Of a DNA stretch of 64,000 nt, positions 5,989 through 24,722 are shown one piece after another; position 1 is the first letter of the stretch; each line of letters begins with the position of its first letter. The notes beneath the pieces are model-generated. The model was not told the origin of the DNA. It saw nothing but the letters and a program-made list of their open reading frames with translations, and ran no database searches. The stretch is from Escherichia phage NHEP1, in the sequence record PQ511146.1; one strand, given 5' to 3'. Both the position numbers and the translations under genes were made by a program.

Positions 5989-6005
5989 TTTTCAGTCCTC
6001 TCTAT

Positions 6006-6035
6006 ACAAAAATGCCCCACCCTTTCGGGCAGGGC
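6006..6035 (-). terminator. rho-independent terminator (GCCCUGCCC-GAAA-GGGUGGGGC + U-run)
   Basis: 9-bp stem with GNRA tetraloop followed by AUUUUUG on minus strand, just downstream of gene 6051..7277. Confidence 0.6.
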
Positions 6036-6050
6036 TATGTTGACTAGATG

Positions 6051-7277
6051 TTAAAAAGGTATGTCATCATCAAAGGCGTACTGTGCCGGATTCTGATCCA
6101 TCGGGTCGTCTTCCGCATCATCTACAGGAGGAGCGTCTACAGTGTTTTGCTGTGGGGCGGCTTCCTGTTTGGCAGCTTGAGGCTCTTGATGGTCAGTGAC
6201 TCCAGCACCGTTCTTGATCCAATCATACAACGGTTCAGCAAGATTAGTCAAGACATCTTTTGCCTCTGCAGTAATTGCTACTGCAAAATCATCAACTTTC
6301 GTTTTCTTGTCAATACGGCGACAAGCGTTCAATACCGCATTACCAACACTGGCACCTACTTCATCTTCAGTTCGGTTAGTGGCTTGAGCGTACTCTTTCT
6401 TAAGCTCGATGGTGACCACGTGCAGTGTTTTAGCCACATCTAAAGGACTGTCAATCTTAAACCCGCGATCCAGGATGATCTGCAATGCATTGATACTGTG
6501 CCCTGTCTCTACACCGATGGGGTCGTAAGAGGATTTACGCTTACCACCAGAACCTTGTGTACCGTTCTCTGCTTTAGGCGGGTAGGCCTTGAAGCCGCTG
6601 ATAATATTCCCGGTGTCTTTGTCAACAATAGCTGCAACACGACCACCTACCACCAGGTCTTTAAGCTGCTCATCAGAGACAACCATAGCACCTTCACCAA
6701 TCTTGTGATCATTGACAGTAACCACGTTGCCAACAATCTGAGTCACATCGCCATAGATGCGTAAAACGTCCTGATTGGCATTCTGCTGAGGTTTCTGCTT
6801 CTGGCCTTGTGATTGTGCACCTTGTTGCTGTTTTTGCTGCTGAGTCGCTGCTGGAGCCTCTCCTGCACCCAGCTTGACCATCTTAGCCAGGGAGCCTTTG
6901 TAATAGATCTTACCGTTATGCTCGTTTGCCTTCAAAGGGATATTTACGATCCATCCTGGCGTTACAGTTTCCCACTTGTCATCAATTTTAACAGAGACAG
7001 AGTCTTGATGACCCGGTTTAAGCAGCTTATCACCCATACTGATCCAAACTTCTTCACCACCTTGAAGCAGGTTATCAGAGGAATCCAGTTCAGAAATCAG
7101 TAAAGAGATGGTGTGGCTGGATTCAATTTTCTTACCTTGCCACACAGTGGTTTTAATACCTGTTGTAGGATCAGCACCTTTGATAGGCTTGATGCTGACA
7201 CGTTTAATCATGCCGTGAGCCAGTAAAACAGTTTCACGCGGATTCATCGGGTTAGCGAATTGTTGAATAACGCTCAT
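6051..7277 (-). CDS. putative ssDNA-binding / replication accessory protein with SSB-type C-terminal tip
   Basis: 408 aa; Q/G-rich low-complexity linker; ends ...QYAFDDDIPF, matching the E. coli SSB tip (DDDIPF); N-terminal fold not identified. Confidence 0.45.
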   Translation of the reverse strand: MSVIQQFANPMNPRETVLLAHGMIKRVSIKPIKGADPTTGIKTTVWQGKKIESSHTISLLISELDSSDNLLQGGEEVWISMGDKLLKPGHQDSVSVKIDDKWETVTPGWIVNIPLKANEHNGKIYYKGSLAKMVKLGAGEAPAATQQQKQQQGAQSQGQKQKPQQNANQDVLRIYGDVTQIVGNVVTVNDHKIGEGAMVVSDEQLKDLVVGGRVAAIVDKDTGNIISGFKAYPPKAENGTQGSGGKRKSSYDPIGVETGHSINALQIILDRGFKIDSPLDVAKTLHVVTIELKKEYAQATNRTEDEVGASVGNAVLNACRRIDKKTKVDDFAVAITAEAKDVLTNLAEPLYDWIKNGAGVTDHQEPQAAKQEAAPQQNTVDAPPVDDAEDDPMDQNPAQYAFDDDIPF

Positions 7278-7642
7278 TATTTATCTCCTTGTTCTTCGTT
7301 AGTGTTTGCCGTGTGTGCAAACCCTGCTTGAATTAATTTGTCCTGAACTTGAGCCAACAGGCCCATTGCAAAACTTGTGGTCCCAGAGAGGGCCATCAGC
7401 ATATCTCGTTGTTGAGCTACCCAACCTAAGGCATAGTCCAAACGACGATATTTTTCTTCTTCACGCAGAGCCTGGAATAATTGTTCAGCCTCTGGCTGTT
7501 GTGTAAGCTCCTGAAGTCTTCCCATGAAAGAAGAAAGCACTAGCAGAAGAGACACTTGATCTTTACTTAACCCTAAGAAAAATTCTTGAGGTTGTTCTTG
7601 CTCGTTCATCGCAACCGACGCTTGATCGTTCATTTGTTCCAT
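7277..7642 (-). CDS. hypothetical protein (121 aa)
   Basis: ATG 8 nt after GGAG; track TTG extension to 7753 covers hairpin and promoter-like sequence. Confidence 0.5.
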   Translation of the reverse strand: MEQMNDQASVAMNEQEQPQEFFLGLSKDQVSLLLVLSSFMGRLQELTQQPEAEQLFQALREEEKYRRLDYALGWVAQQRDMLMALSGTTSFAMGLLAQVQDKLIQAGFAHTANTNEEQGDK

Positions 7643-10466: not shown

Positions 10467-13400
10467 TTAGTGACAATCACCCCAGTTACGACCGCACAAG
10501 TATTCACCTGTGATCTGGAACGGAACGCCCATCATTTTAGAAGCCTGCCAGAAGCAATGCACCACCATTTCGCCCACAGGGCTCCAGATAAGCTCAAGCT
10601 TTCCGTCATCATTCAAGATAGGATCGTATACCGTATTTCCATCCTTGTCAACCACTTCGTTTCCGTCCTCATCTTTGCGTGCCTTTTTGTACTTATGACC
10701 GTCGAACACATGAAGTTTAGCCTCTTGTTGGGCTTTAAATGTTTCCAGCTCTTCAATTGTGTCGAAGGTGTATACGGTTTTATACTTAGGTGTGTCAGGC
10801 ACTTGAAGCTGATATTCGTCATGGTAATAGATAATACGACGAACACCCTCATCATACCATCCACGCTTCACCATCTGGTGGTGCATGAGGATTCCGACCA
10901 AGTCGCACAACGATGCACCGCCATTTTGCTGATATGCATTAAGCAAAGAGTGTTTAGAGCGGGTCCAAATGGCATGCCCGTCAAAAGAGTAGATAAATTT
11001 CTTACCTGTTGCTTCCCAGAATTTCTCCAGATCCTCTTTACGCCCCTTAAGGCCCGGGTTGGCATCCCAGAGAGCATCAATTACTCTCTGTCCAAGTTCT
11101 GGAGAGATATCTAGCATATCTGCAACTTTATCTTTTTGTGCCCCGTACATAACCCCATATGTGACAGGCTTACCATCGTTACGGGAAATCTCCTTGCCTG
11201 CTACAGAAGAGTAAGCTTTGGCGTTATTACAGTTACCGCACACTGCCACTTTACCATTCCTTCTCACAATGATTGCTCCAGAAGGGACGGTAACGCAATA
11301 AACCAAAGAACCGCTCACCTCGACAGACTCTTTAGATAGTGTCAGCAACCCTGCTCTCTGTTTGCTACCAATCGTGATTCTGTGCTGTACGGAACGACCT
11401 TTTTTGTGAATCGCCACCGTATTATTCCGTAAACCACACTGAGTAGCCAGCGCAGACACAACCTCTACAGATTTCTTCCTGCACCCGGCCTGAGAGTAGT
11501 AGGCAACTTTTCCACCTTCGGAAGATACCCACCCGTCCCAGTTAGATAAAGAAGCTATAAACAGGTTTTTAGATTCTTTATCAAGGTCCATCAGGTTGTA
11601 GGTGAAATCCTTATTGCTGTCCAAAAACTCAAATACCCAGGACGGAACGTGGAATTGGAACCTTCTCGCCAGTAAGCCCCCTTTTGTGGTTTTCCCGCTC
11701 TGCTCTACATAACTAAGGCTTAGAGCAGAAAAAGTATCTAAAAGCGTTGCAACTTTTCTGCCCTTCCCGACCTGAATCCTGCACACGATGCTGCCGTCCT
11801 TATTTGTATGCAAGTGCCCATCATCGTGAATAGCAATAAGCAAATTAACCTGGGCAGGAGATAAGGTTGTATTCCCATAAAACTCTGCCGCATGGATAAA
11901 CCTTCTTCCTGAATTAGACCCTTTACCTGCTTTCAGGTCTTTTGCCAAATCTTCAAACAATTTATTGCTTCTGTGATCCACGGTCAGCATCCTGTGTTGA
12001 TCTGTAACCATAAAATCCACACTGCTGTTGTGGAAATGATACATATCCCCACAATAACTACGCTTAACGTAATTTAATGGAGTAACAAGGTTCATCGACG
12101 AGGTGTTGTGATCGTACTGGAACACCTGTGTTCCCGGATCAAGATCTTCAAACCTCACCCACCCTTTCTCCGTGAGAATTTGTGTATCTCCTGAATAACA
12201 GTGTGCATCGCCGTTACTTACAACATCATAATACAGACCGTTGTCAAACTCAAAGGCACCCCAGGCCCCGATGAGCTGCTCTAAGTTGGACCCGTCAATA
12301 CCGATCTCAAAGTATCCTGGAGGAACACCCCACAGACTACGCATCTCTTTACCCATAACCACTTTAGGAGATGGTTTAGGCATGTTTGCACAAATACTAT
12401 GTTTCTGTCTGGAAGTGTTTGTTAATCCAGAACTTTTAGCAGGAAGCTTGTGGTCAATCTTCAAACGTGGATGATTAAGAAGACCAGTATCAACCTTATC
12501 TTCCTTGATTGGATCAAGGACCGATCTGCGGTTTCGCAATGATAACCACAAAACGATATCTTTAGCCATCTCTCCGTTCAATTTTTCAAGATTCGGGCAC
12601 AGGTGTCCAAACGTATCTTTCAGTTGCGGAGAAGTAATAAGCGCTCTGGCTTTTCTACGTATCTTCCCAAACACTTCCTTTTTAATCCTTTCTGAGTTAG
12701 GGAAGCTTCGGAACTTATGCACAGTTGTCTGGAACTTGGCATCAGTTTTGTTCCAGAAGTTGATAATTAGATCACAATACTCTGACTCCAAAAGCTCGTC
12801 CATATATGCATATACTCGTGCATCAACATCTGCATCAGGTAAAGCTTTCTTCTTGCTGTCTTTAGTTACATCTTTAGTTCTCCACATTGTTGGGAGCCAA
12901 CCAGCACTGATCAGGTATCGCTTGATGTCGTCCTGATTGCTGATTTTCATAGGTATCTTGCAGTCAGGCATTCGCTTCTGCTGTAGGTCACTTATCGCCT
13001 GATCCATCAGCTCTTTAGGTAAAGGGTGTGGTGTAGAAGTTCCTTTGATATACCCCCTCAAGAAATCAGCCATCTTATCGGGGTCTTTACAGCCCATCTC
13101 TTCACACCATTTTATCCCCATCTTACTTACATCCCCTGTGGAGGTAAATGCTCGCTTAGGAGGAGCTTTGAACTCTAAAGCACTCATGTCCACAGGGTAG
13201 CCAAGCTTGTCTTTTAACCATTTCCAACCATTATTGGAGATTGTCCCATCTTGGTTAAACGGCTTTTCAGGGAACTTAGGCCGCTGAGACATTGATAACT
13301 CTTTTAAAGGAAGTTGTGGTTCAACACGATCAGCGATCTCTTTCATCCACGCATCGCAACGGTCACGTAAAGCAATAGCCCCATCTATGTCGAAATACAC

Positions 13401-14213
13401 CCCCTGTCGAGCCTGCAGCTCCATCAGGAAGTGCTGTAACATGCCTCGGCGTAATGCGTTCTTCCAGGTGATCTTCTTGAAGCCTTTCGGCTTCTCTTTG
13501 GCAGGATCGTACATAAAGTTCTGCATGTCAGATTTGCCGTAGAATACACCTTTTGATTCCGCTACCAACTCCTTCCAGAGCAACTCCTGGATGATAACGT
13601 CCTCGAACACACGATCCACATACTTCCACAGTGGAAGCTCACGCCAGTCATCGATTTGAACTTTCTGGTTACCAAGGGCATAGCCCCATGCCATAAGGCC
13701 ATGAGGCCCAACAGGCTGCATTTTCTTGGTAACTGGATTGAATACTGCGTCCGGACAACCTTTTGGCAAAGGGCGGTCAGGCCACAAGATTCGGCTCATC
13801 GCTAACGTATCAAACAGATTAACCGGGTGGTCGTTGATAGTCCCCATGCATTTAGGATCACGGAACATATCAAAATGAATACCGGATAATCTTTCCATCA
13901 GCATAAAGTCGTAACTGTAGCAGTTATGACAGTTCAAAGCCGTAGGTGACCAGTCTGAATTGCCTGTAAGCCAACCTTCCAACTCTGAAAAATCTGCTAT
14001 GCGAGCCTCAAAATCTGTATAAAGGGTCTTCTTTGCCAGAATGAAGTTCTTAGCTTTCTCCACATCCTCTTCAGAGTAGTGTGTGCGGTCATTTAGAGGA
14101 AGGAACAGCATAAAACGGTTCTTATTCAGCTCTTTAAACAAACCGCAGTGATAATAAAGATCTGGGTCTTCCAGCAGGCCAGAGGCCTCAAAATCGAACG
14201 ACCACATGCTCAT
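10467..14213 (-). CDS. family A DNA polymerase (3'-5' exo + pol) interrupted by an intein
   Basis: Exo I FDFEASGL; motif A IGIDGSNLEQL; motif B KPVTYGVMYG; motif C YYHDEY; AAGGAG SD; 1248-aa precursor. Confidence 0.9.
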   Translation of the reverse strand: MSMWSFDFEASGLLEDPDLYYHCGLFKELNKNRFMLFLPLNDRTHYSEEDVEKAKNFILAKKTLYTDFEARIADFSELEGWLTGNSDWSPTALNCHNCYSYDFMLMERLSGIHFDMFRDPKCMGTINDHPVNLFDTLAMSRILWPDRPLPKGCPDAVFNPVTKKMQPVGPHGLMAWGYALGNQKVQIDDWRELPLWKYVDRVFEDVIIQELLWKELVAESKGVFYGKSDMQNFMYDPAKEKPKGFKKITWKNALRRGMLQHFLMELQARQGVYFDIDGAIALRDRCDAWMKEIADRVEPQLPLKELSMSQRPKFPEKPFNQDGTISNNGWKWLKDKLGYPVDMSALEFKAPPKRAFTSTGDVSKMGIKWCEEMGCKDPDKMADFLRGYIKGTSTPHPLPKELMDQAISDLQQKRMPDCKIPMKISNQDDIKRYLISAGWLPTMWRTKDVTKDSKKKALPDADVDARVYAYMDELLESEYCDLIINFWNKTDAKFQTTVHKFRSFPNSERIKKEVFGKIRRKARALITSPQLKDTFGHLCPNLEKLNGEMAKDIVLWLSLRNRRSVLDPIKEDKVDTGLLNHPRLKIDHKLPAKSSGLTNTSRQKHSICANMPKPSPKVVMGKEMRSLWGVPPGYFEIGIDGSNLEQLIGAWGAFEFDNGLYYDVVSNGDAHCYSGDTQILTEKGWVRFEDLDPGTQVFQYDHNTSSMNLVTPLNYVKRSYCGDMYHFHNSSVDFMVTDQHRMLTVDHRSNKLFEDLAKDLKAGKGSNSGRRFIHAAEFYGNTTLSPAQVNLLIAIHDDGHLHTNKDGSIVCRIQVGKGRKVATLLDTFSALSLSYVEQSGKTTKGGLLARRFQFHVPSWVFEFLDSNKDFTYNLMDLDKESKNLFIASLSNWDGWVSSEGGKVAYYSQAGCRKKSVEVVSALATQCGLRNNTVAIHKKGRSVQHRITIGSKQRAGLLTLSKESVEVSGSLVYCVTVPSGAIIVRRNGKVAVCGNCNNAKAYSSVAGKEISRNDGKPVTYGVMYGAQKDKVADMLDISPELGQRVIDALWDANPGLKGRKEDLEKFWEATGKKFIYSFDGHAIWTRSKHSLLNAYQQNGGASLCDLVGILMHHQMVKRGWYDEGVRRIIYYHDEYQLQVPDTPKYKTVYTFDTIEELETFKAQQEAKLHVFDGHKYKKARKDEDGNEVVDKDGNTVYDPILNDDGKLELIWSPVGEMVVHCFWQASKMMGVPFQITGEYLCGRNWGDCH
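11232..12200 (-). other. intein (about 323 aa) within DNA polymerase, with LAGLIDADG-like endonuclease insert
   Basis: N-terminal CYSGDTQIL after extein ...GDAH; block B TDQH; block F VYCVTV; C-terminal ...VCGN followed by +1 Cys; LLIAIHDDGH and LFIASLSNWDGW resemble LAGLIDADG motifs. Confidence 0.7.
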
Positions 14214-14271: not shown

Positions 14272-16350
14272 TTAAAAAGGTGTTTCGTCGTCTTCAAAAC
14301 CAGGAACGTGGTTAGAGGACGGATCATCATACTGAAGGTCTTCCTGTGTGTCAACAGGGTTAACAGCAGGGGTTATAACCTTATCAGCCACAACCTTGCC
14401 CACAGGTGTTTCTACAACTGCATGCTCCTGATCCTCAAACATAGCCTGAGGTCTCCAAACAACCTCCCCACCTTCCCCGTCTGTAAACATCTGCATTTCT
14501 TTGTCCCAGTACCAGTTGCTGGCATCATAGAACTTGCCTGTGTGGGGATCCATAACTAGAGTGTCCGCAATACCTAAGGTTTTTGCTGGGCGGTTTTTAA
14601 GACCTACCAGTCGGACACGTCCACGGGAACGATCCACCATCTCCTCTGCCTCTACCCCGACAACCACCCAGCTAAGTTGCTCCAATCCGGCACTACCGCG
14701 AAGGTTCTCTTTTCGTACAGGGTACCAGAAAGGTAACGGATTTCCATCCTTATCCTTCGGAGGTACAATCTCTGTGCGCTTCAGGTGAGCAATCACCAAG
14801 ATAAACACATTAAACTGCTTACAGAACGCGGCTAGTTGAGTCATAGCCATGTCAAGCTCTTTACGCTCATCCTTAACATTAAGCCCTGAAATCACCATAG
14901 ACAGGTGATCCAGCACAATGTAACGGCAGTGATACAGGCACACCATTTGTTTAAGCTTAGTGATCAGCTCATCTACAGGGATGGAGCCGAAATGCTTGAA
15001 CACTTTGATTTTTCCGGCCTTGGCCCAAGATTGATGAATCTCAGCGTGCTCCTGATCGGTCAGGAACTGACTGGGGTCTTCAACAAACTCTTTAACATCA
15101 AACCCCAGCTGGTTAGCGTACAGAGAGTTGATTGCTTCCTCAGGATCCTCTTCAAGGTGAATCAGGCACAGGCGATCATCCTCTTCATAATCATCAGCTT
15201 TAGGGCATGTTGGATCCATCAAGTATCTTGCAATGCAATGTTCCAGCTTCTTGGCTACAGTTGTTTTACCACCGCCAGACGGGCCTGTCAGCATCATCAA
15301 GGTGCCTTTGTGGAGTCCTTTCAGCATCTTCTGCAGTTTAGGGAACTCTGCACTGATATCTACGCCATTGGAAGTCTTCTTACGAAGAGATTCAATGGAG
15401 AAGTCTTCTAAATCAGATACAGCATCAGGCACATATTTGACTGGGTGACGGAACATGTTGACAATATCTTCCAGCTTTTTAGCCTTCAGCATGTCACGAA
15501 TATCTTTTACACCATCAGGGTCGTTTACCTCACCCGGGTATTCCACGTGGTAAACGTTATCAGCCATCAAAAATGCTGCGATATTATGTGTGGCTTCAAC
15601 ACCTTTAATAACGTGTTTTTGCTTCTCTACCTCGTTAGCTGCATCGTTGTCCATTGCAAGGACCACTGTTCCGTAGCTACGGATAAATTTCTCATTGTTC
15701 GCAAAAGTGTCTACGGCGTTTGCACACCCACAGTTAATTCCAACAAAAGGCAGGCATGGTTTTCCTGCCAGATCCCCGCCGTTGATAACTGCATCAATCC
15801 CATCCTGGACTTCTTTAGCCCACTGCTTCACCTTCGCTGGGGCTTTAGCATTGGTGAGAATTCCTTTTACTTGTATCTGATATGCAGCCTGCCACGCTGC
15901 AATAACATCTCCTTCTCCCTCACAAACGTTAATCTGCTTACGGTTGTTGGAGGATGCACACAGCTTTTGACCAAACATCTGGGAGTTGGCCTTTACTATG
16001 CCAACAACCGAGAAATGGCCCCTTTGCTCTTTAGGGATTGTCCAGTCACGCTTTTTAAAGCCAGATAGATTACCGTAGCGGTCATAATACGGAAAGTAGG
16101 TGGCAGTAACAGTTACACCATCCTCTTGGGATAGCGATGATCGTACACCAAAATATTGTGCAGCCATCAGTCCAATATTTTGTTGTGGAACAGGGACAAT
16201 TTTAGTGTTTTCTAAAACAGTCTCCACAGTTTCAACTTCTTTTTCATCACGATAGTCTCGTTTCACACTCCCCCCACTTTTATACTTAGTTGCTTTCGGG
16301 TTTGGCTCACCGAAACGGTTGTATGCAGATGCCATGAATTTACTGCCCAT
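14272..16350 (-). CDS. T7 gp4-like DNA primase-helicase
   Basis: TOPRIM-like VCEGEGDVIAAW; DnaB-type Walker A GPSGGGKTT and Walker B IVLDHL; acidic C-terminus ending DDETPF; AAGGAGAAG SD; no Cys4 zinc-binding domain seen. Confidence 0.85.
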   Translation of the reverse strand: MGSKFMASAYNRFGEPNPKATKYKSGGSVKRDYRDEKEVETVETVLENTKIVPVPQQNIGLMAAQYFGVRSSLSQEDGVTVTATYFPYYDRYGNLSGFKKRDWTIPKEQRGHFSVVGIVKANSQMFGQKLCASSNNRKQINVCEGEGDVIAAWQAAYQIQVKGILTNAKAPAKVKQWAKEVQDGIDAVINGGDLAGKPCLPFVGINCGCANAVDTFANNEKFIRSYGTVVLAMDNDAANEVEKQKHVIKGVEATHNIAAFLMADNVYHVEYPGEVNDPDGVKDIRDMLKAKKLEDIVNMFRHPVKYVPDAVSDLEDFSIESLRKKTSNGVDISAEFPKLQKMLKGLHKGTLMMLTGPSGGGKTTVAKKLEHCIARYLMDPTCPKADDYEEDDRLCLIHLEEDPEEAINSLYANQLGFDVKEFVEDPSQFLTDQEHAEIHQSWAKAGKIKVFKHFGSIPVDELITKLKQMVCLYHCRYIVLDHLSMVISGLNVKDERKELDMAMTQLAAFCKQFNVFILVIAHLKRTEIVPPKDKDGNPLPFWYPVRKENLRGSAGLEQLSWVVVGVEAEEMVDRSRGRVRLVGLKNRPAKTLGIADTLVMDPHTGKFYDASNWYWDKEMQMFTDGEGGEVVWRPQAMFEDQEHAVVETPVGKVVADKVITPAVNPVDTQEDLQYDDPSSNHVPGFEDDETPF

Positions 16351-17104
16351 TAATTCTTCTCCTTACTGCAGGCTCGTTTGCTAAGAATACAGCTCTTGCC
16401 CAGCCACGTGGTGTAAGGCTTCGAATCATCTTCGTCCTTGCACTCTTTCCACCTAGCTTAGCGTGTTGCATGGAATAACCACTAACCGCATCAACTATTT
16501 GCGGGACAGGTTTTGTGGCGGGGATTATAAATCCATTGCCTATCCAACCGCAAGTTATTTTTGGGTAGGCATCACGTGGAGCTATAAATTCAGGAAACCA
16601 TGGGTTTACATCATCCTCTGGTAAATACCCACCATAATCCGAAGGATGAAAACGGTAATCAGGTTTTCGCCACAGTGTTGACATAACTCCTACAGGGTTC
16701 TCTACATGCCACGGGCAATCGTAAATCTCTCCCAACTCTTCTGCAACCCGAGCATCTTTCACAGCATTAATTTGGATCAGAGGATCCTTAGCCAGCTTTT
16801 TCTTAAAGTGTGCAGCTCCGGATACTGCTAAATGCGTGCACGGAGGAAATGCAAGAATAAAGTCTGGAGCCGGATACATGCAAAAAGTTTCTTGAGGGAA
16901 CCATGGATCAATCCAATAATCCACATAGTGAATGTTAGGATGATCGGTTATCACCTCTACATAACTACCGTGGTCAGCACCTTCTGCATTAAAGCACAGG
17001 CACAGGTACCCAGCTTTTGCCCAGTCAATAACTGCACCACCGGACCCGTCAAATAGACTCCACACGACACCTTTGTGGTAGTGTTCTTTGTAGATAAATT
17101 TCAA
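16340..17104 (-). CDS. DNA (cytosine-5)-methyltransferase-like protein
   Basis: motif I FDGSGG, motif IV FPPC, motif VI HVENPVG; TTG start 7 nt after AGGAGA; track GTG at 17134 lies inside the terminator hairpin. Confidence 0.5.
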   Translation of the reverse strand: MKFIYKEHYHKGVVWSLFDGSGGAVIDWAKAGYLCLCFNAEGADHGSYVEVITDHPNIHYVDYWIDPWFPQETFCMYPAPDFILAFPPCTHLAVSGAAHFKKKLAKDPLIQINAVKDARVAEELGEIYDCPWHVENPVGVMSTLWRKPDYRFHPSDYGGYLPEDDVNPWFPEFIAPRDAYPKITCGWIGNGFIIPATKPVPQIVDAVSGYSMQHAKLGGKSARTKMIRSLTPRGWARAVFLANEPAVRRRINGQ

Positions 17105-17120
17105 TTTGCTGTCTCCTAAT

Positions 17121-17149
17121 GCAAAAAGCCCCACCCTTTCGGGCAGGGC
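17121..17149 (-). terminator. rho-independent terminator (same GAAA-loop hairpin as at 6014)
   Basis: GCCCUGCCC-GAAA-GGGUGGGGC + UUUUUG on minus strand downstream of gene 17156..17638. Confidence 0.55.
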
Positions 17150-17155
17150 ATAGTG

Positions 17156-17638
17156 TTAAACCCGGATACCTATTGTATACTCGGTGGATACCAATGTCAA
17201 ATCTAAATTTAAAATTTCTTGCATCTCATAGTATGCGTCCAGGGTGAGATACATTTCACCATCCTTTTCTACATACTTGTCAAGGTGTTTTAGGCACTTT
17301 GGATAGCTATCAAGGGCAGCCTTTAGGCACTCAAACTCCGTGCTGTTGATGAATCCTTCCATCTTGGCTACCCGTTCCGGAGTAACGATAGCACTGTAGT
17401 GAGATTTAGCTTCCTGAATGCAATGGGTCCAAGCATCAACTTTCTCTTCGAAAAGTCCGAAGAACTTCTTCTTGGTGAGCTTCAGATTCTTTAAGTGCTT
17501 AAGAACTCGGTTGCCGATTACAGACACATCACGAAACTTAAGGATCACTTTGTCAATATCCTCGCGGCCTATTTTCACAAAGCAGGCCTCACACATTTCA
17601 GGAGAGGCATAGCCTACTTTCCACATAAAATCTGACAT
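17156..17638 (-). CDS. hypothetical protein (160 aa)
   Basis: ATG start; operon context. Confidence 0.6.
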   Translation of the reverse strand: MSDFMWKVGYASPEMCEACFVKIGREDIDKVILKFRDVSVIGNRVLKHLKNLKLTKKKFFGLFEEKVDAWTHCIQEAKSHYSAIVTPERVAKMEGFINSTEFECLKAALDSYPKCLKHLDKYVEKDGEMYLTLDAYYEMQEILNLDLTLVSTEYTIGIRV

Positions 17639-17650
17639 AGCACTCCCTCC

Positions 17651-18049
17651 TTATTCCTGAAAAGCAACGATATCGTATGAGCTTGCAGACGAGCCGGGGG
17701 AAGAGTGACTCCAGTCTAGATCATCAGAGAAGTCAGCATACTGTGCACCACTCCGCAGTTTATATTTTACCCACTTACCTGGTGCAGGGTTTTCACCACC
17801 CTCCCATACTTCCCAACCTTCTGGCAAGCCGTTATCTTGGGAGTAACCATCAACTTCACTAGTGATCTCTGGGTTTGGCACCAAGATCCATGCAGGCTCT
17901 TCCTTCTTAGCAAGTGTCCACACAATGTATGTGTCTGAGCAGGAGCATGTCAGTAAAGTATACCCACTGTTCAGAACTTCTGCAAGCTCTTTTTCAGCAT
18001 CTTCTAATTTGGTTAGGTGGTATTGGATAATCTTCACATCTGTAATCAT
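17651..18049 (-). CDS. hypothetical protein (132 aa)
   Basis: ATG start; operon context. Confidence 0.6.
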   Translation of the reverse strand: MITDVKIIQYHLTKLEDAEKELAEVLNSGYTLLTCSCSDTYIVWTLAKKEEPAWILVPNPEITSEVDGYSQDNGLPEGWEVWEGGENPAPGKWVKYKLRSGAQYADFSDDLDWSHSSPGSSASSYDIVAFQE

Positions 18050-18351
18050 TAGAAGCCTCCTACTTCTTCAGCAAATGCTGCCGCTGTCGTCGCTGCATCC
18101 AGATAGGACTCTAGTTCACGTGCTGCACGTTTGTAAATCGAGTGGCGCAGATCGTTTGGTAACTGGTGAAAATCCACCTCTTCTCCGTTGTGGTAAACAT
18201 GCACATCAGTAATCTGTCTAAATCCATAATAATCAACATCAGAATCACGGCACTCCAGATCTGGCAACTGGACAACTGCCTGAGCCTCTACAGTGAGCAT
18301 ATCGTCAAGTTCGAAATCGATTTCAAAAGTGTATGGTTTATAACGCTTCAT
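18049..18351 (-). CDS. hypothetical protein (100 aa)
   Basis: ATG with AAGGAGAA SD. Confidence 0.55.
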   Translation of the reverse strand: MKRYKPYTFEIDFELDDMLTVEAQAVVQLPDLECRDSDVDYYGFRQITDVHVYHNGEEVDFHQLPNDLRHSIYKRAARELESYLDAATTAAAFAEEVGGF

Positions 18352-18410
18352 TATTCGGTGTTCTCCTTATCTTGTGTGAAGAGTAGACCTCTCCTTCGAT
18401 ATTTTAAATA

Positions 18411-19754
18411 TTACTCTAAATCTTCTTCTGAGTCAAGCTTATCTTTCACAGCTAAATTAGGGGCAAGTTTGTAATAGCGAAAGCCCCCACCGCCTTGCCA
18501 GTTTACAGATTTAGAAATACCACTTTGATCTTCACCATCGATCACTTTTTGCAAGCGTGGAATAATATGGGTATGACAATGATCTCCTAGCTCAACCGAG
18601 ATCCAACGTCTTTTCATCTTGTGAGCTACAGCAGCAGTAGTTCCAGAACCACCAAATGAATCCAATACTAAATCTCCTTCTCGCGTACACATTTCTAAAA
18701 TCCGCTTCAAAAGCGCTTCAGGTTTTTTTCCATTTTTGAAACTAACGCCCCCTTCATTTGCTATTCCATTCCAACTAATGTCAGTCCAAACATCAGTTAT
18801 TAGTTCAGCAGGCTGCATCTCACCGTCAATTTCCAAAAGCCTGTTGGAATAAAAGACCATTTGCCTACCATTTGCGATATAAAAGCCTTCGACATCCTCA
18901 TTTGGATGTACATAAACCTTATCCCTATCTTTCTTTGACTTCTCGATAGTTTCTTTTCTCTTTATTTTGGCACCACCGCCAATTGCAACGGATTGAAATA
19001 CACGTTCTGCATTATCAATTGCAAATTGTGCTAATTCATCATCAAATGTATCAGGCAGTTTTTTCTTGGCTTCTTTTGTATCTTTATAGCCATTGGCCTT
19101 TGCAAACGCATCGGCAATACCGCACCACGTCCAACTTTTATAATGGTCATCTGGGTTTAATAGATATTTGTTATATCCCGTATCATACTCTTTAGGTATA
19201 TAGATTTTGTTAAGTGGTTTCTTGGTACGATCTTTTGCATATACAAGCAAAAAGTTTGCTGTGGAGAAAACTGTAGTTCCTGTTGCCTTAAAGCCTGAAG
19301 GGCAATTTGTAGTCATCGATATGGTATTTAACTGATTTGCACGACCAAAAATCTCGTCCATCAAGACTTTTAAATAAGCCATTTCGCAGTCATCTAAGTG
19401 AACGAATATCACTCCATCATCGCTTAGCAGATTACGAATTATTTCTAATCTGTCCCGCATTAAGCCCAGCCAAAGGGAGTGCTCCAGGCTATCATCGTAG
19501 TGCTCAAAATCCCTTCCGGTATTGAATGGCGGGTCTATGTAAACACACTTCACTTTGCCTGCATACTCTTGCTCTAGTGCCTTCAATGCCAGTAAGTTAT
19601 CTCCAAAAATCAGTTTATTATCAAAAATATCGTTTTCGGTCACCTTTTTACTGGCGTGATAAGACTTGCTCGAATCTTCTAACAAAATGTGAGGCTCTAG
19701 CTTTTTGCGCTCGTTCTTACCTATCCAGGTAAGTTCTAATTTGGTTTTACTCAT
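18411..19754 (-). CDS. DNA N6-adenine/N4-cytosine methyltransferase (beta class)
   Basis: motif IV CVYIDPPF precedes motif I VLDSFGGSGTT; AAGGAGAG SD. Confidence 0.75.
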   Translation of the reverse strand: MSKTKLELTWIGKNERKKLEPHILLEDSSKSYHASKKVTENDIFDNKLIFGDNLLALKALEQEYAGKVKCVYIDPPFNTGRDFEHYDDSLEHSLWLGLMRDRLEIIRNLLSDDGVIFVHLDDCEMAYLKVLMDEIFGRANQLNTISMTTNCPSGFKATGTTVFSTANFLLVYAKDRTKKPLNKIYIPKEYDTGYNKYLLNPDDHYKSWTWCGIADAFAKANGYKDTKEAKKKLPDTFDDELAQFAIDNAERVFQSVAIGGGAKIKRKETIEKSKKDRDKVYVHPNEDVEGFYIANGRQMVFYSNRLLEIDGEMQPAELITDVWTDISWNGIANEGGVSFKNGKKPEALLKRILEMCTREGDLVLDSFGGSGTTAAVAHKMKRRWISVELGDHCHTHIIPRLQKVIDGEDQSGISKSVNWQGGGGFRYYKLAPNLAVKDKLDSEEDLE

Positions 19755-19780
19755 CGTTTGGTGCTCTCCTTAGTTTTTGT

Positions 19781-19798
19781 GGGGAGGAGTGCCTCCCC
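19781..19798. promoter_or_regulatory. GC hairpin GGGGAGG-AGUG-CCUCCCC in 5'UTR of methyltransferase gene
   Basis: 7-bp stem; T-run follows on the plus strand only. Confidence 0.3.
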
Positions 19799-19815
19799 TT
19801 TATACTCACATCTTA

Positions 19816-20157
19816 CTACTCAAGGTCTTCAGAGTCAAGCTCAAAAAGAATCAAACTGTGCATGCCTGCAGAGAGATCAACACACCCTGCAACAATAAGG
19901 GTTTGATAGTAAGGTTCAGCACCCTCAATATCTTCGTTAAAATCCACAACAAGGTAGTCACCTTTGTTAAAGGTGTATTTGTCCGATGTAAACGCAAAAC
20001 CTGCCCAGTCCCCTACTGCAGGATCTTTATCAGTCACCTTTGTTAGCAGTAGATCTTTTTCACGAGATCTTTTAGTAAAATCGTGAATCACAACATCCTT
20101 CTCTTCAGGAGTCGGATTGCCACACACGTAGTTAACGATATTTCTCCACAAACTCAT
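19816..20157 (-). CDS. hypothetical protein (113 aa)
   Basis: ATGA overlap with helicase gene. Confidence 0.55.
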   Translation of the reverse strand: MSLWRNIVNYVCGNPTPEEKDVVIHDFTKRSREKDLLLTKVTDKDPAVGDWAGFAFTSDKYTFNKGDYLVVDFNEDIEGAEPYYQTLIVAGCVDLSAGMHSLILFELDSEDLE

Positions 20158-21524
20158 ACGTCCCCCTTTTCTGCTCTAGTTTCAAAATCTTTCCTGACTT
20201 TCTCGTCTAAGCCAGGGAAAGTTGTATTATAAAACTCTACGACTCTCGGGTCAACAATAATATCCACCTCTCTTAATGGACGCAACAAGTTTATTCCTTG
20301 TATCGTCTTAACCCGACTCAAGGCAACATACGTCATTCCGGGAGAGAAAGCTCCGTTCTTTCCGAGGTCTAGGTTGTAACAATCTAACGTAAGTCCTTGA
20401 CTTTTATGCGATGTTACTGCGTACCCAGATTTCAAAGGAAGTTGCTCATAAGACCCGATCACAACCCTCTCTATGAACTTCTCCATCTTCCTTTCGGCAA
20501 TATTGTACCTCTGGGAAGGTTTGTACTCGTTATTCTCCCACAATCTCGGCTCAATTTCAACCTGTGTCCCGTCTTCCAGCTCAACCACCACAGACTTGGT
20601 CTTGAATTTTACCACTGTGGCGCGTGTCCCGTTGACATAGTACGGAACTTTATGTGTCGGGTCAACATCGTTTGAGGTTATCATAACCTTCATCCCTATC
20701 TTCAGCCTCATTTCCTGCTCCACAGGCAGTGTGGAGGGGAACTTACCTTTCATTTTACCAATGTAGGTCTTCTCTGGGGCCTTGATGGCATCATAGAAAC
20801 GTCTGTTCACCTCCTCTGCTTGCTTATTGGTGGCACAGATGGTCAAGGCATCTGTTGGGACACCACCATGATAGCAACGAGTGTTAAGCTCTGCTACAAC
20901 CTCTTTTATGCGACGACCTTCACGAACACAGTTCAACATTGTGGCGAAGCGAACAGATTCCTGACGGAACTGGTCTACTAATGCTATATTGTGAAGATTA
21001 AGATCCTCCCAAGATTTTGTATAGCAACACAGGTCTGTGTGGTAGAAGTTGAAGTAGGCTTCTTTCTCCATAGAAGAGACAACTGGGGGTGCTTGGTAGA
21101 AATCTCCAAACAATAGCACCTGAATGCCTCCGAAAGGTTTGTCATTTTTCCGAAGAAAGCGGAGTTTTCTATCCATCTCTATGAACTTGTCAGCACGGAT
21201 CATAGAGATTTCATCGATAATTAGGATGGTAAATGCCTTGCTTTTCAGAGGCTTTGCTGTTTTTGCCCTTATTGCTGTCCAGTCTGACTCCATGCTCACA
21301 CCTGCGGCAAGATCGAAAGTTCGGTGCGCTGTTGCTCCATTAACGTTTAAAGCGGCTACCCCTGTCGGGGCAACCGTTATGCAAGAGTCTCCATACATGG
21401 ACTGGATCATGTTGATAAGATATGTCTTCCCGGTTCCACCGGGTCCACTTACGAAGACATTCTCACCACTCATGATTGCAACAAGGGCAGCATCTGTGCC
21501 TACATCGTACTGCCCTTTTTCCAT
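20154..21524 (-). CDS. SF1B DNA helicase (Dda/RecD/Pif1-like)
   Basis: Walker A GPGGTGKT, Walker B IIDEISM, C-terminal TSHKSQGLTLD and YVALSRVK motifs. Confidence 0.85.
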   Translation of the reverse strand: MEKGQYDVGTDAALVAIMSGENVFVSGPGGTGKTYLINMIQSMYGDSCITVAPTGVAALNVNGATAHRTFDLAAGVSMESDWTAIRAKTAKPLKSKAFTILIIDEISMIRADKFIEMDRKLRFLRKNDKPFGGIQVLLFGDFYQAPPVVSSMEKEAYFNFYHTDLCCYTKSWEDLNLHNIALVDQFRQESVRFATMLNCVREGRRIKEVVAELNTRCYHGGVPTDALTICATNKQAEEVNRRFYDAIKAPEKTYIGKMKGKFPSTLPVEQEMRLKIGMKVMITSNDVDPTHKVPYYVNGTRATVVKFKTKSVVVELEDGTQVEIEPRLWENNEYKPSQRYNIAERKMEKFIERVVIGSYEQLPLKSGYAVTSHKSQGLTLDCYNLDLGKNGAFSPGMTYVALSRVKTIQGINLLRPLREVDIIVDPRVVEFYNTTFPGLDEKVRKDFETRAEKGDV

Positions 21525-22729
21525 TACGCCTCCTCGTAGATAATGTCGATAGTATTACCGTCGCGGTCAACCACGTACTCAATTGGGTCGCCATCTTTGC
21601 GTGATTCTGGAGCTACTACGATTTCGTAGCGGCATGCACGGCACTTGGCGCTGTTGTGTTGGTAAGGTACACTAACTACATCAGCAGGGTCAACCATGAC
21701 CGTCATCACAGTTCCGTAGCTCTTTGCATACTCTTTGCTGGCACAGTGCAGGCCATAAGAGCATGCAGCTTCCGGATCATCCTCTACAAAGTTACGGGGC
21801 ATGGATACAAAAGCTCCCTGGTATTGTGGGACTTTACCACTGTGCCAATCCACCCACTTGTCGCCGTTAAACTGAACCCCTTTGTAGCAAATGATTCGAC
21901 CATCTTCTGCAATCTGAATGTCGTTTGCCTGCATAAAATCGTAGAGCATGTTTACAGATTTTGCAGAAGGATTGCGTAGCAGGCGAACGAGGAATTTCAC
22001 ATAGCGGTCATCCAGTGTTCCGTCTGCATAATCTTTCTCAATTTTCTTTGCAATGGTGGATCGCATCTCTACACCGTAGTAGTAGAGCTTACCATCTTTC
22101 ATGATCAGGTTGTCTGCAAGTGTGGTGAACTCATTCTTGCGTTCCAGCCAGACAAGGATTTCACCAATTGCCTCGTCATATTCCTGAACAGAGATATGGT
22201 CGAAGACTTTCTGGTAAACTTCCTCACTTTCACTGCGGCGAATTTCAAAAATACCTTCGTTGCAGGTGATCTGGAGGAGTTCCCCGCAAATAACCACCAA
22301 AGGCTCGATGCTTCGGGTCTGTTGCTGAGACACACTGCTCACCACCTCCAGCACCGGGTCTTTTACTTCTACTAAAGGTTCTTCTGACTTGATTGCTACC
22401 CCAGTGAACCCTACACCGTGAACAACACACAGTGGATATACCACACCCCAACGTTTAACGGAACCTTCTCCTGAATCTAAGATCATGGCGTACTTACCGT
22501 TATCTTCCAGCCCATATCGAAATAAACGGGCCTCTTCACGGGTTTCAAAATCCTCACGGGTGTAGCAGACGCTGTCACGGTCAGGATCGAACAACTCTGG
22601 GGCACCTACTGCCAGTGTCCAGGTTGTGTTACCTTTCTCAATAGCGCATGTGAAACCCTTCTTCTCAAGCTCTGCACGGCGGTCACGTGCTTCTTTACGA
22701 GTTTTGAAATGTTCGTAGATGAAAATCAT
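21524..22729 (-). CDS. rIIB-like partner protein (putative) with tandem N-terminal repeats
   Basis: immediately follows the GHKL ATPase; ATG 5 nt after AGGAGA (track TTG at 22765); two about 45-aa repeats at N-terminus; assignment by synteny only. Confidence 0.4.
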   Translation of the reverse strand: MIFIYEHFKTRKEARDRRAELEKKGFTCAIEKGNTTWTLAVGAPELFDPDRDSVCYTREDFETREEARLFRYGLEDNGKYAMILDSGEGSVKRWGVVYPLCVVHGVGFTGVAIKSEEPLVEVKDPVLEVVSSVSQQQTRSIEPLVVICGELLQITCNEGIFEIRRSESEEVYQKVFDHISVQEYDEAIGEILVWLERKNEFTTLADNLIMKDGKLYYYGVEMRSTIAKKIEKDYADGTLDDRYVKFLVRLLRNPSAKSVNMLYDFMQANDIQIAEDGRIICYKGVQFNGDKWVDWHSGKVPQYQGAFVSMPRNFVEDDPEAACSYGLHCASKEYAKSYGTVMTVMVDPADVVSVPYQHNSAKCRACRYEIVVAPESRKDGDPIEYVVDRDGNTIDIIYEEA

Positions 22730-22739
22730 CTTGGTCTCC

Positions 22740-24722
22740 TTATTTGATGTTATTCTTTGTATCAATCAGTTCACGGTATTCAATCATAGCAGGAGTGTCC
22801 CAATATTTCAAGCCTACATGCTTCAAAAGTGGATATTTCTTTTCCAATCTTGCAATATAGGCCTTCCCGCACTTAACCCGGTTGGCGATTAAGATTTTGG
22901 CACGATGATTTAGCTCACCGTACTTCCACGTGGTGCTACCTTCCCACTTGTGGAAATGTGGCCGATAACTTCCAAAATCCTGCATGGGGATAATTTTACC
23001 TAACTGTCTGTACAGGCTGTCATATGAAGTTTCATTTGCTGCGCGAGTTAGTAAGAATTTCCAAGCATCCTCTTTCAACAAATGTTCCACATTCTTCTCT
23101 GTAACATATTGGCAATCAGGATCAGTCCAAAGCAGACGAGATTCCGACACCAGGTACAGATCTTCCCCTTCAGGAATCTGGAGTGCCGCACGCACACGGT
23201 CATAATCTTGCTGGTAGATGTTGCTCATCTGCCCTAGCCAACAACTTCCGCGTTGGATATCCCCCTCATACGGTATGCAGTGCTTAATCTTCCTGAACTC
23301 TGCCTTAGTAATACGCTCACGCCGGAAGTAACCATCCTTCTCAAGTTTTTTAACCCAATAGCCTGGTTCGTAACGGGTTTTGGTTTCACCTTTCTTCGTA
23401 GGTCGGCGTGGAAGCTCCGATAACAATTTGACCGTATCTGCAAAAAACGGATGGTGTGCCGCCTCTTTAAACTCTTTCACCAGATCCGTGTTACGGCAAT
23501 AGAAAACGTTGCGTCCGGTAATCTCGCTTAAGTAGTTACACTTATTCCGGTTATATTTGCCGTCTCCGTCGTTAAATACTAAATAAACTCCCCGTAAGAA
23601 TTCTACCTTTCCGTAGCAGGCGTAACCTATGCGGCCTTTATTTAAGCCGCCAGCGAAGATCTCGCAGTCCCCCAAATTTCCTAGCCCTGTTTCTTCCCAG
23701 CGGTCATACATAAAATTCTTACCGAAGATGTGCCCGAACACTCCACTGTTCTTCATCATCTCGCGTGCTTCTGAGGATGTTTTTGCTGTCTCCAGTTCTG
23801 CAACAACTTCTGCTCCACGAAGGCGAATGCCTTCTTTGACAAAAGCTTCCAAACGCTCTTGGAATCCACCATCGTCGTGACCTTCTATGGTCCATTCACG
23901 CCCTGGGTTAATATTGCAATCTCCGATAGGGATCTCTACACAAATTGCAGGATAATCTATTAGTGTCTCCAGGAACTTAGAACGGTAAGGTTGGTGACCC
24001 ATTACCACACGACTCTCGTCAGAGCTGGTATAACCCTTCAGGATGGTCATCTTCCAACCATCTTTTTCATAATAATACTGCGCCTCTACTTTGTCTCCCT
24101 CCAGCATCTTGCTCGTCATCGGGTCGGTGACAGTGAACGGAAATTTTGCATAGCGCAGGCATGATGCAATAGCGGTGCGATATTTCAGAACATGCTCTTT
24201 CTTAACATGAAACTGAACTTTTACCCCGTTGTGCTCTTCAGTCTTCCGCTCACGGATCTTGGTGACATTTGGGATACCCTGGTCCAAGAACAATAGGTAT
24301 GTGCTTTCCACACCGTTGTGCACACTGATTACATCGAAAGTGTCCACCATACTGAACGGGGCCTTTGAACCAACACCTTTATTGCCTACCAGAGCGTTGC
24401 TGTTGCGCTTGGTTGACTCTCCGAGGTTCATGAAGGTGTTGCGGACCATCTCTTCTGACATGCCTAATCCAACGTCCTGCACAAAGAAGTATGGTTCAAG
24501 GTCTGTAGGAGAGTGAATGATGATCGGAACATCACCCCGTCCAGACTCAACATGGGAGTCCACAGCATTGAAGATCGGTTCACGGCAGCTTGCCAGCACC
24601 TTATCTTCATAAATCCCTTTGATGATTAGCCCAAAAGTCTCTTTGTTCAGAGAAATTGATCCCCTGGTTACCTCCATATTCCCAGTTAGCACCGCTTTAG
24701 TTTCACTGCTGTTTACAATCAT
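22740..24722 (-). CDS. GHKL-family ATPase, rIIA-like
   Basis: Bergerat-fold motifs: N-box EPIFNAVDS, G1 VQDVGLGM, G2 NKGVGSKAP; 660 aa. Confidence 0.6.
   Translation of the reverse strand: MIVNSSETKAVLTGNMEVTRGSISLNKETFGLIIKGIYEDKVLASCREPIFNAVDSHVESGRGDVPIIIHSPTDLEPYFFVQDVGLGMSEEMVRNTFMNLGESTKRNSNALVGNKGVGSKAPFSMVDTFDVISVHNGVESTYLLFLDQGIPNVTKIRERKTEEHNGVKVQFHVKKEHVLKYRTAIASCLRYAKFPFTVTDPMTSKMLEGDKVEAQYYYEKDGWKMTILKGYTSSDESRVVMGHQPYRSKFLETLIDYPAICVEIPIGDCNINPGREWTIEGHDDGGFQERLEAFVKEGIRLRGAEVVAELETAKTSSEAREMMKNSGVFGHIFGKNFMYDRWEETGLGNLGDCEIFAGGLNKGRIGYACYGKVEFLRGVYLVFNDGDGKYNRNKCNYLSEITGRNVFYCRNTDLVKEFKEAAHHPFFADTVKLLSELPRRPTKKGETKTRYEPGYWVKKLEKDGYFRRERITKAEFRKIKHCIPYEGDIQRGSCWLGQMSNIYQQDYDRVRAALQIPEGEDLYLVSESRLLWTDPDCQYVTEKNVEHLLKEDAWKFLLTRAANETSYDSLYRQLGKIIPMQDFGSYRPHFHKWEGSTTWKYGELNHRAKILIANRVKCGKAYIARLEKKYPLLKHVGLKYWDTPAMIEYRELIDTKNNIK

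Follow-up and report, generated by a model that had tools for sequence, protein, structure and literature searches.

The DNA examined here is a stretch of 64,000 nucleotides (nt) from Escherichia phage NHEP1 (PQ511146.1), hereafter the window, in which two genes on the minus strand encode proteins related to DNA methyltransferases (MTases), one of 447 amino acids (aa) belonging to the beta class and a short one of 254 aa resembling cytosine-C5 enzymes. By sequence comparison, the 447-aa enzyme is a type III Mod, i.e., a truncated copy of the methylase of a host restriction-modification (R-M) system without its C-terminal domain (CTD). We favor, and consider fairly probable, the reading that both proteins are phage-encoded orphan DNA MTases made during replication, so that progeny DNA would leave every host in modified form; the Mod would have been captured and would match the site of one E. 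coli type III system, and the 254-aa protein would be a minimal C5-MTase. We infer enzymatic activity, the methylated base, the target sites, and a protective effect from the comparisons given below.

A first-pass annotation of the same sequence had proposed two orphan MTases of different classes. This was borne out, both being without a nuclease partner in the phage according to domain scans and the annotation of the closest phage. The motifs it named (FDGSGG, PPC, and ENP in the short protein, DPPF before FGGSGT in the long one) are all present, and both assignments are, on the level of whole-gene comparison, significant matches rather than chance motifs.

A type III Mod-like enzyme of 447 aa

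The features of the longer gene are the following.

18411..19754, minus strand: orphan type III Mod-like beta-class amino-methyltransferase, 447 aa, without the Mod CTD (PF01555, PADLOC MTase_III)
19524..19535, minus strand: motif IV DPPF (catalytic), aa 74-77
18639..18656, minus strand: motif I FGGSGT (S-adenosylmethionine (SAM) binding), aa 367-372
18425..19767, minus strand: DNA homology block to an E. coli chromosomal type III mod gene, 93.9% identity over 1,344 nt

The position of DPPF ahead of FGGSGT, with the target-recognition domain (TRD) between them, corresponds to the beta-class order. The protein matched PF01555 (E 5e-44) and, among the PADLOC models, MTase_III (PDLC03636) with an E value of 3e-205 over model positions 2-445 of 575, compared with 1e-39 for the best type II model. 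Its closest PDB matches are the type III Mods 6k0w (H. pylori) and 4zcf (EcoP15I). Over aa 1-443 it is 95% identical to the 567-aa E. coli Mod P0271, which runs 124 residues further. On DNA level, the homology block begins 13 nt ahead of the ATG and ends 14 nt short of the phage stop codon, with unrelated sequence past both ends, and the GC content of the phage gene is 39.3% versus 44.5% for the whole window. Within Vequintavirus, the genus to which the window belongs, the mod gene is uniform, with 92-99% identity along its entire length. An adjacent res gene was found in the phage neither among the open reading frames (ORFs) nor by domain scans nor in the annotation of the closest phage.

Cognate host locus and probable exchange of the recognition domain

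In E. coli, the mod gene for P0271 is followed directly by an intact gene for 912 aa that matches REase_III (E 9e-191). The island around this mod-res pair also carries a MADS1-like helix-turn-helix (HTH) protein, a DrmD-like SNF2 helicase, AbiD, and an AIPR/AbiU protein. An origin of the parent locus from MADS or DISARM was considered and rejected, since only the HTH protein barely reaches the MADS1 cut-off (82 vs 80 bits) and the SNF2 helicase stays below the DrmD cut-offs; because PADLOC calls the mod-res pair type III, we treat the locus as a type III pair inside a defense island. The matching mod allele occurs in 24 of 5,426 complete E. coli genomes, the same res in 29; strains with this allele include APEC E16002, 2014C-3011, SMN152SH1, and CFSAN004176.

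Full-length Mod homologues share a layout consisting of a large SNF2 (DrmD-like) helicase, variable defense cargo, and mod-res. It was seen in two E. coli loci (L017, 2919-13464; L023, 1209-11739), both starting with a MADS1-like HTH, and in one of Acinetobacter (L021, 1366-10571). The cargo between the helicase and mod-res comprises AbiD and AIPR/AbiU in E. coli, and AAA_15/21 and DUF4276 in Acinetobacter.

The segment compared as recognition domain was defined as nt 376-1100 of mod. Over this segment, the window is 96.4% identical to the matching E. coli allele (allele A), which makes it the highest-identity part of the gene. In a second E. coli allele (strain HCP6S3_I2), flanks and res (99.1%) are unchanged, and the central mod segment is only ~50% identical. 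Both E. coli alleles share 91-94% identity with the phage mod over its first 135 nt, which encode the N-terminal domain (NTD). Furthermore, an unrelated phage contig (L020, with NrdD/G, PhoH, ClpP, and Dam) encodes a 444-aa Mod at 6001-7335 whose gene is 57-75% identical to the window gene at its ends and 92-95% in the central segment. The segment is thereby common to Vequintavirus, one E. coli allele, and this contig. As central identity is high across differing backbones (92-96% on nt level), the recognition domain behaves as a mobile module common to host and phage mod genes, and the sequences point to its modular exchange between mod backbones. The distance from the E. coli allele to each phage sub-lineage is similar to that between the sub-lineages themselves, and these comparisons do not settle the direction and number of transfers.

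The near-identity of the phage TRD to that of a host R-M system, in a module shared by phage and host alleles, is the basis on which we propose specificity matching. It supports, at the level of sequence, self-methylation aimed at one specific host system rather than broad protection. The captured Mod would keep the N-terminal dimerization region, the MTase core, and the TRD, ending just before the CTD. It would methylate the short asymmetric site recognized by a particular type III system of E. coli, and phage DNA would enter cells carrying this cognate system pre-protected.

Modified base and reach of the proposed protection

Most characterized type III Mods make N6-methyladenine (m6A), and a subgroup making N4-methylcytosine (m4C), which includes Eco86II and BspHIV, two systems with an extra superfamily 2 (SF2) helicase gene 5' of mod, has the same DPPY/F motif (PMC8259958). 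The hedged assignment as an N6A/N4C enzyme in the first-pass annotation is thus apt. For the phage Mod, m6A would be the default product and m4C a possible one. As to a link to Eco86II, E. coli NCTC86 was part of the genome collection and was absent among the mod and res matches listed, i.e., the near-identical ones.

The pair had initially been taken as self-protective genome methylation. For the beta-class enzyme, this view has strong comparative support (95% aa and 94% nt identity to the E. coli Mod); it does not hold as general protection and is not supported for the C5-like protein. Several points have to be set against the favored reading. The cognate type III system is a rare one, carried by 0.4-0.5% of complete E. 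coli genomes, and yet essentially all Vequintavirus genomes have the mod gene. Many related phages are propagated on K-12 MG1655, and this strain carries McrBC, which argues against dense 5-methylcytosine (m5C) in R-mC contexts. In the literature searched, no methylome, enzymology, or restriction-digest data were found for either protein or for rV5-like phages, which is not proof of absence. Finally, Vequintavirinae were described as "exceptionally susceptible" to EcoRI, EcoRV, EcoKI, EcoCFT_I, EcoCFT_II, and EcoP1_I in the BASEL study, EcoP1_I and EcoCFT_II being the type III systems in these tests (PMC8594841). The sensitivity to six R-M systems means that any protection is narrow and rules out broad protection. 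It does not contradict a narrow protection against the cognate type III system, and neither the EcoP1_I nor the EcoCFT_II host strain is among the genomes with the matching mod allele.

Some of the same data could be accommodated by a regulatory role, in which methylation marks would time replication, transcription, or packaging, or would tell phage from host DNA for a phage nuclease. Dam methylation of phage P1 works in this manner for pac cleavage. Both genes lie among replication genes, with the C5-like gene overlapping the start of the primase/helicase gene, they are retained in essentially all Vequintavirus genomes despite the rarity of the cognate host system, and no broad R-M resistance is gained. 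We nevertheless consider this unlikely, as the Mod TRD is nearly the same as the one in a host restriction system and behaves as a mobile module, which is the signature expected of specificity matching, and as no phage nuclease partner was found by domain scans or in the annotation of the closest phage.

A minimal C5-MTase-like protein of 254 aa

For the short gene, the following features were located.

16340..17104, minus strand: short C5-cytosine-methyltransferase-fold gene, 254 aa from TTG (the mechanical ORF extends to a GTG at 17134)
17036..17053, minus strand: motif I-like FDGSGG, aa 18-23, predicted SAM-binding loop after strand 1 (family consensus S-L-[FY]-D-x-[TS]-G)
16838..16846, minus strand: motif IV PPC, aa 87-89, predicted catalytic Cys89 (Cys in 66/66 family members)
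16694..16702, minus strand: motif VI ENP, aa 135-137, equivalent of ENV, with Glu135 (E and P invariant, N in 62/66; aligns with ENV of Dcm)

Membership in the C5-MTases rests on structure, because searches against Pfam, NCBIfam, and PADLOC gave nothing and profile and hhalign matches were sub-significant. The AlphaFold model, built with 26 homologues, reached a predicted local distance difference test (pLDDT) score of 87.5 and a predicted template modeling (pTM) score of 0.88, and its best PDB matches in Foldseek were the catalytic domains of DNMT3A/B (E 2e-5). The model thus places the protein in the C5-MTase catalytic-domain fold. The family profile hit DNMT3B, DNMT2, and M.HaeIII among PDB sequences at only E 0.2-0.9, and the hhalign comparison with E. 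coli Dcm was likewise sub-significant, with all of these matches correctly placed. In these comparisons, FPPC (aa 86-89) falls on PC in DNMT3B, DNMT2, and Dcm. The motif I consensus of the family (LFDxTG) is looser than the FDGSGG of the window protein. In addition, the protein belongs to phrog_757, named "DNA methyltransferase" (E 4e-87), and viral structure databases label relatives as "DNA-cytosine methylase".

Across 66 diverse members with a mean column identity of 32%, Cys89, Gly96, Glu135, Pro137, Pro154, Tyr180, Trp187, and Pro195 are invariant, making an inactive relic unlikely. The earlier suggestion that the short enzyme may be non-catalytic is disfavored by the invariance of Cys89, Glu135, and Pro137 in this set. 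Its companion remark, that there is little space for a TRD, was correct: only ~38 residues lie between strand 7 (aa 184-189) and R228. A strongly conserved insert (aa 150-183) has no counterpart in canonical C5-MTases, and the conserved segment aa 150-195 stands where a TRD would. From the model and the conserved residues, the best reading is that of an active minimal DNA m5C methyltransferase, most likely making m5C at a short or relaxed target.

It is improbable, in our estimation, that the protein is not a DNA m5C methyltransferase, being instead inactive, acting on RNA or single-stranded DNA (compare Dnmt2 on tRNA), or transferring another group (compare CmoX, which uses carboxy-SAM). The first three of the points for such a deviation count at the same time against the m5C assignment. 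There is no PF00145 match at E <= 0.1 and no NCBIfam or PADLOC match for the 254-aa protein, and one match to PF00145 (E 0.0067) among the 66 family members. At the end of strand 2 (motif II), the position of the acidic residue binding the SAM ribose, the window protein has Asn39, as do all 26 close relatives; in the wider family, 62/66 members have Asp. By sequence, neither motif VIII (QxRxR) nor motif X (GN(A/S)V) is recognizable, and the conserved elements seen instead are R177-D-x-Y-x-K-x-T184 and a C-terminal RSxTPRGFAxAVFxAN. The high conservation of aa 150-195 across the family moreover suggests that the target is a fixed one and not a varying set of DNA sites. Inactivity, however, conflicts with the invariant Cys, Glu, and Pro, and the best structural matches are DNA enzymes. 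CmoX, a phage DNA cytosine C5-carboxymethyltransferase of 333 aa, is distinguished by SPPC, the defining Arg350 in place of the motif X Asn, and usually a phage-encoded CmoA partner, often together with a ligase (8yf3; PMC12783734), whereas the window protein has FPPC, and neither CmoA nor a ligase is annotated within ~20 kb either side in the closest phage record. A variant would be that the phage-only clade of 210-260 aa represents a separate kind of enzyme modifying cytosine at C5 in a cysteine-dependent manner, either at a single target fixed across the family or from an unusual donor. The lack of a variable TRD, the conserved segment aa 150-195, the missing canonical motifs VIII and X, and the Asn at the ribose-binding position leave room for this, and we regard it as very unlikely.

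The family is large, with 4,178 clusters at 90% identity and 1,025 at 50%, nearly all of 210-260 aa. Its genes are found in T1-like phages, podovirus-like contigs encoding an RNA polymerase, lambdoid prophages, and Vequintavirinae, with no constant neighbor; in lambdoid prophages, the gene lies two genes downstream of a T1-type Dam. M.AquI is an example of a split C5 enzyme. A comparable arrangement, with the missing part encoded by a small neighboring ORF, was rejected, since these ORFs contain no methylase domains and a weak phrog_1573 match (E 6e-4) was unconvincing. The upstream neighbor in a lambdoid prophage is also unrelated to the 160-aa ORF next to the window gene, and elsewhere the gene stands alone among varied neighbors.

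As a side observation, the short C5-like fold is also found as a single domain within very large BFVD phage proteins that carry a helicase/UvrB-like annotation (A0A6J5SE15, 1,397 aa, Foldseek E 6e-10; A0A6J5NPY6, 1,126 aa, E 3e-7); thus, helicase fusions exist.

Possible consequences of the truncation

In EcoP15I, the Mod subunit has its NTD at residues 14-60; residues 62-262 and 390-516 form the MTase domain, 263-384 the TRD, and 539-644 the CTD. The two Mods dimerize via NTD and MTase domain, Mod2 is active as a methylase by itself, and the CTD of one protomer contacts Res extensively (PMC4490356). The alignment of the phage protein with EcoP15I ends at about residue 521-525, i.e., before the CTD. 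By analogy, the phage Mod retains the parts for dimerization, recognition, and methylation and is without the Res-docking part, so that it would be unable to arm a host Res. Over its last 124 residues, the E. coli Mod has no detectable sequence similarity to the EcoP15I CTD; therefore, the Res-binding role of the missing part is an analogy only.

That the protein acts mainly as a competitor or decoy, occupying sites or heterodimerizing with the host Mod into complexes which cannot hold Res whether or not they methylate, would agree with the loss of exactly the region that contacts Res in EcoP15I, with the retained dimerization and recognition parts, and with the NTD identity to both E. coli alleles (91-94% over the first 135 nt), and is nonetheless quite unlikely given that DPPF and FGGSGT are both intact, that a mid-infection gene cannot protect the incoming DNA on which restriction acts, and that a Res-binding role of the E. 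coli Mod C terminus has no sequence similarity to the EcoP15I CTD behind it.

Gene order and transcription signals

The window belongs to Vequintavirus, i.e., to the rV5/FV3-like coliphages; positions 16000-20200 are 97.6% identical to Escherichia phage S127 BCL3 and 92-97% identical to more than 100 further Vequintavirus genomes (rV5, FV3, Murica, and BASEL phages among them). Besides these, 16-22 GenBank records of the MG0656xx series, named "Campylobacter phage" with C. jejuni as stated host, are ~93% identical to the E. coli Vequintavirus DNA here. The stated host appears questionable, unless mixed preparations were sequenced.

Every gene of the region is carried by the minus strand. The features surrounding the two MTase genes are:

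10467-14213, minus strand: DNA polymerase
14272..16350, minus strand: DnaB-like primase/helicase directly downstream of the C5-like gene (PF03796, PF13481; annotated DNA primase/helicase)
17128..17149, minus strand: terminator-like hairpin, 9 bp stem with 7 GC pairs, then TTTTTGCATT (T-run)
17156..17638, minus strand: 160-aa ORF, no assigned function (phrog_12900 E 8e-113; no Pfam or NCBIfam match)
17651..18049, minus strand: 132-aa ORF, no assigned function (phrog_11995 E 7e-83; no Pfam match)
18049..18351, minus strand: 100-aa ORF, no assigned function (phrog_4240 E 3e-32; no Pfam match)
20154..21524, minus strand: PIF1/Dda-like helicase, upstream of the Mod-like gene (PF05970 E 1e-33; phrog_325)

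A 113-aa ORF sits between the Mod-like gene and the PIF1/Dda-like helicase, beyond which rIIB and rIIA follow. The two MTase genes had been described as three genes apart, and exactly three small ORFs (17156-17638, 17651-18049, and 18049-18351) separate them; searches of these against Pfam, PHROGs, and NCBIfam gave no match to a Vsr-like or other nuclease partner. Scans with the same three collections found no nuclease domain in the ORFs of 16340-22765, and in the annotation of the closest phage record no restriction endonuclease is named within ~20 kb either side.

The polymerase ORF differs from that of the closest phages, with 1,248 aa here versus 925 aa in S127 BCL3 and JeffSchatz. The extra 323 aa start with CYSGDTQIL, end with VAVCGN followed by Cys, and show a weak Hint_2 match (E 7e-5). 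These sequence marks make an intein probable, perhaps one that includes a homing endonuclease.

Counted from the GTG, the short gene (16340-17134) would encode 264 aa. A start at the TTG at 17104, giving 254 aa, is likely, because AGGAG precedes this codon by 8 nt, the GTG at 17134 falls inside the terminator-like hairpin (in its 3' arm), and homologues and GenBank records use the 254-aa form, as does the nearest database cluster. The stop of the gene overlaps the primase/helicase start by 11 nt. The hairpin starts 7 nt past the stop of the 160-aa ORF and is an annotated terminator in phage Murica. Replication genes do flank the pair (DNA polymerase, primase/helicase, and PIF1-like helicase). 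The proposed location in one replication operon is doubtful, as the predicted terminator lies between both MTase genes, which may therefore not share one transcript.

Two further signals were noticed. A near-consensus sigma-70-like site (TTGACA, 17 nt, TACAAT) at 17200-17172 on the minus strand is located just upstream of the hairpin, not downstream, so that a transcript from it would meet the hairpin directly; the combination could be an attenuator, an mRNA-stabilizing 5' stem, or a chance promoter match. The second is a GC-rich hairpin (GGGGAGGAGTGCCTCCCC) at 19781-19798, between the 113-aa ORF and the Mod-like gene and just outside the 5' edge of the E. coli mod-homologous block, with a terminator-like score on the plus strand only.

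Significance and relation to known systems

The gene pair is already known at annotation level and is an ordinary feature of a well-sampled phage genus; GenBank labels read "putative N6 adenine methyltransferase", [quoted passage not shown], and "Dcm-like C5 cytosine methyltransferase". In the literature searched, we found no description of the missing Mod CTD or of its gene's correspondence to a particular type III allele of E. coli, which is not proof of absence. What is added here, as far as sequence comparison carries, is that the long enzyme is a CTD-less copy of a host type III Mod with a TRD matching a rare E. coli R-M allele. For the short enzyme, the addition consists of model-based structural support and the conservation of the predicted catalytic residues.

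The practical value is modest, with the mod gene as a readable host-range determinant. rV5-like phages serve the typing and biocontrol of O157/Shiga toxin-producing E. coli (STEC) and avian pathogenic E. coli (APEC). They should be pre-immunized against one type III R-M system, present in some cattle, poultry, and human E. coli isolates, and still be highly sensitive to other R-M systems. By the truncation at a domain boundary, the phage would keep the protective half of a host defense and drop the nuclease-recruiting part. The minimal C5-like family is very abundant in enterobacterial phages and lies below the Pfam threshold; no tested member was found in the literature searched, and the activity of a single one would annotate thousands of genes.

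Compared with the structurally characterized type III Mods (4zcf, 6k0w), the phage enzyme shares the DPPF...TRD...FGGSGT order and a homologous layout of NTD, MTase core, and TRD. It differs in being carried by a lytic phage without res and in missing ~124 C-terminal residues at the place of the Res-contacting CTD. The three-gene type III systems (Eco86II, GAGCC; BspHIV, CGCCC; both m4C) resemble the E. coli and Acinetobacter homologue loci in the large SNF2-type helicase upstream of mod-res and in the DPPY/F motif, whereas in the latter the helicase is split from mod by inserted defense genes; the extra helicase of the three-gene group has no known role (PMC8259958).

From the DNMT3A/B catalytic domain, M.HhaI, M.HaeIII, E. 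coli Dcm, and the enzyme of prophage CP-933R (3g7u), the 254-aa protein is set apart by an identity of only ~13-17% and by the failure to match PF00145. It further departs from canonical C5-MTases in the ~38 residues from strand 7 to RSxTPRGF, the insert aa 150-183, the lack of QxRxR and GNxV by sequence, and the Asn in place of the motif II acid. As a pair, the genes resemble the orphan phage MTases covered by the review of Murphy et al. 2013, as represented by its citation in PMC12210895, in being stand-alone methylases near replication genes. A precedent is Certrevirus CB7 of the same subfamily, which is described as encoding an adenine methylase and a cytosine methylase, the latter with a Dnmt2 homologue as best HHpred hit (PMC7344957). 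There is no essential difference between the CB7 arrangement and the one described here, and the window represents another instance of it.

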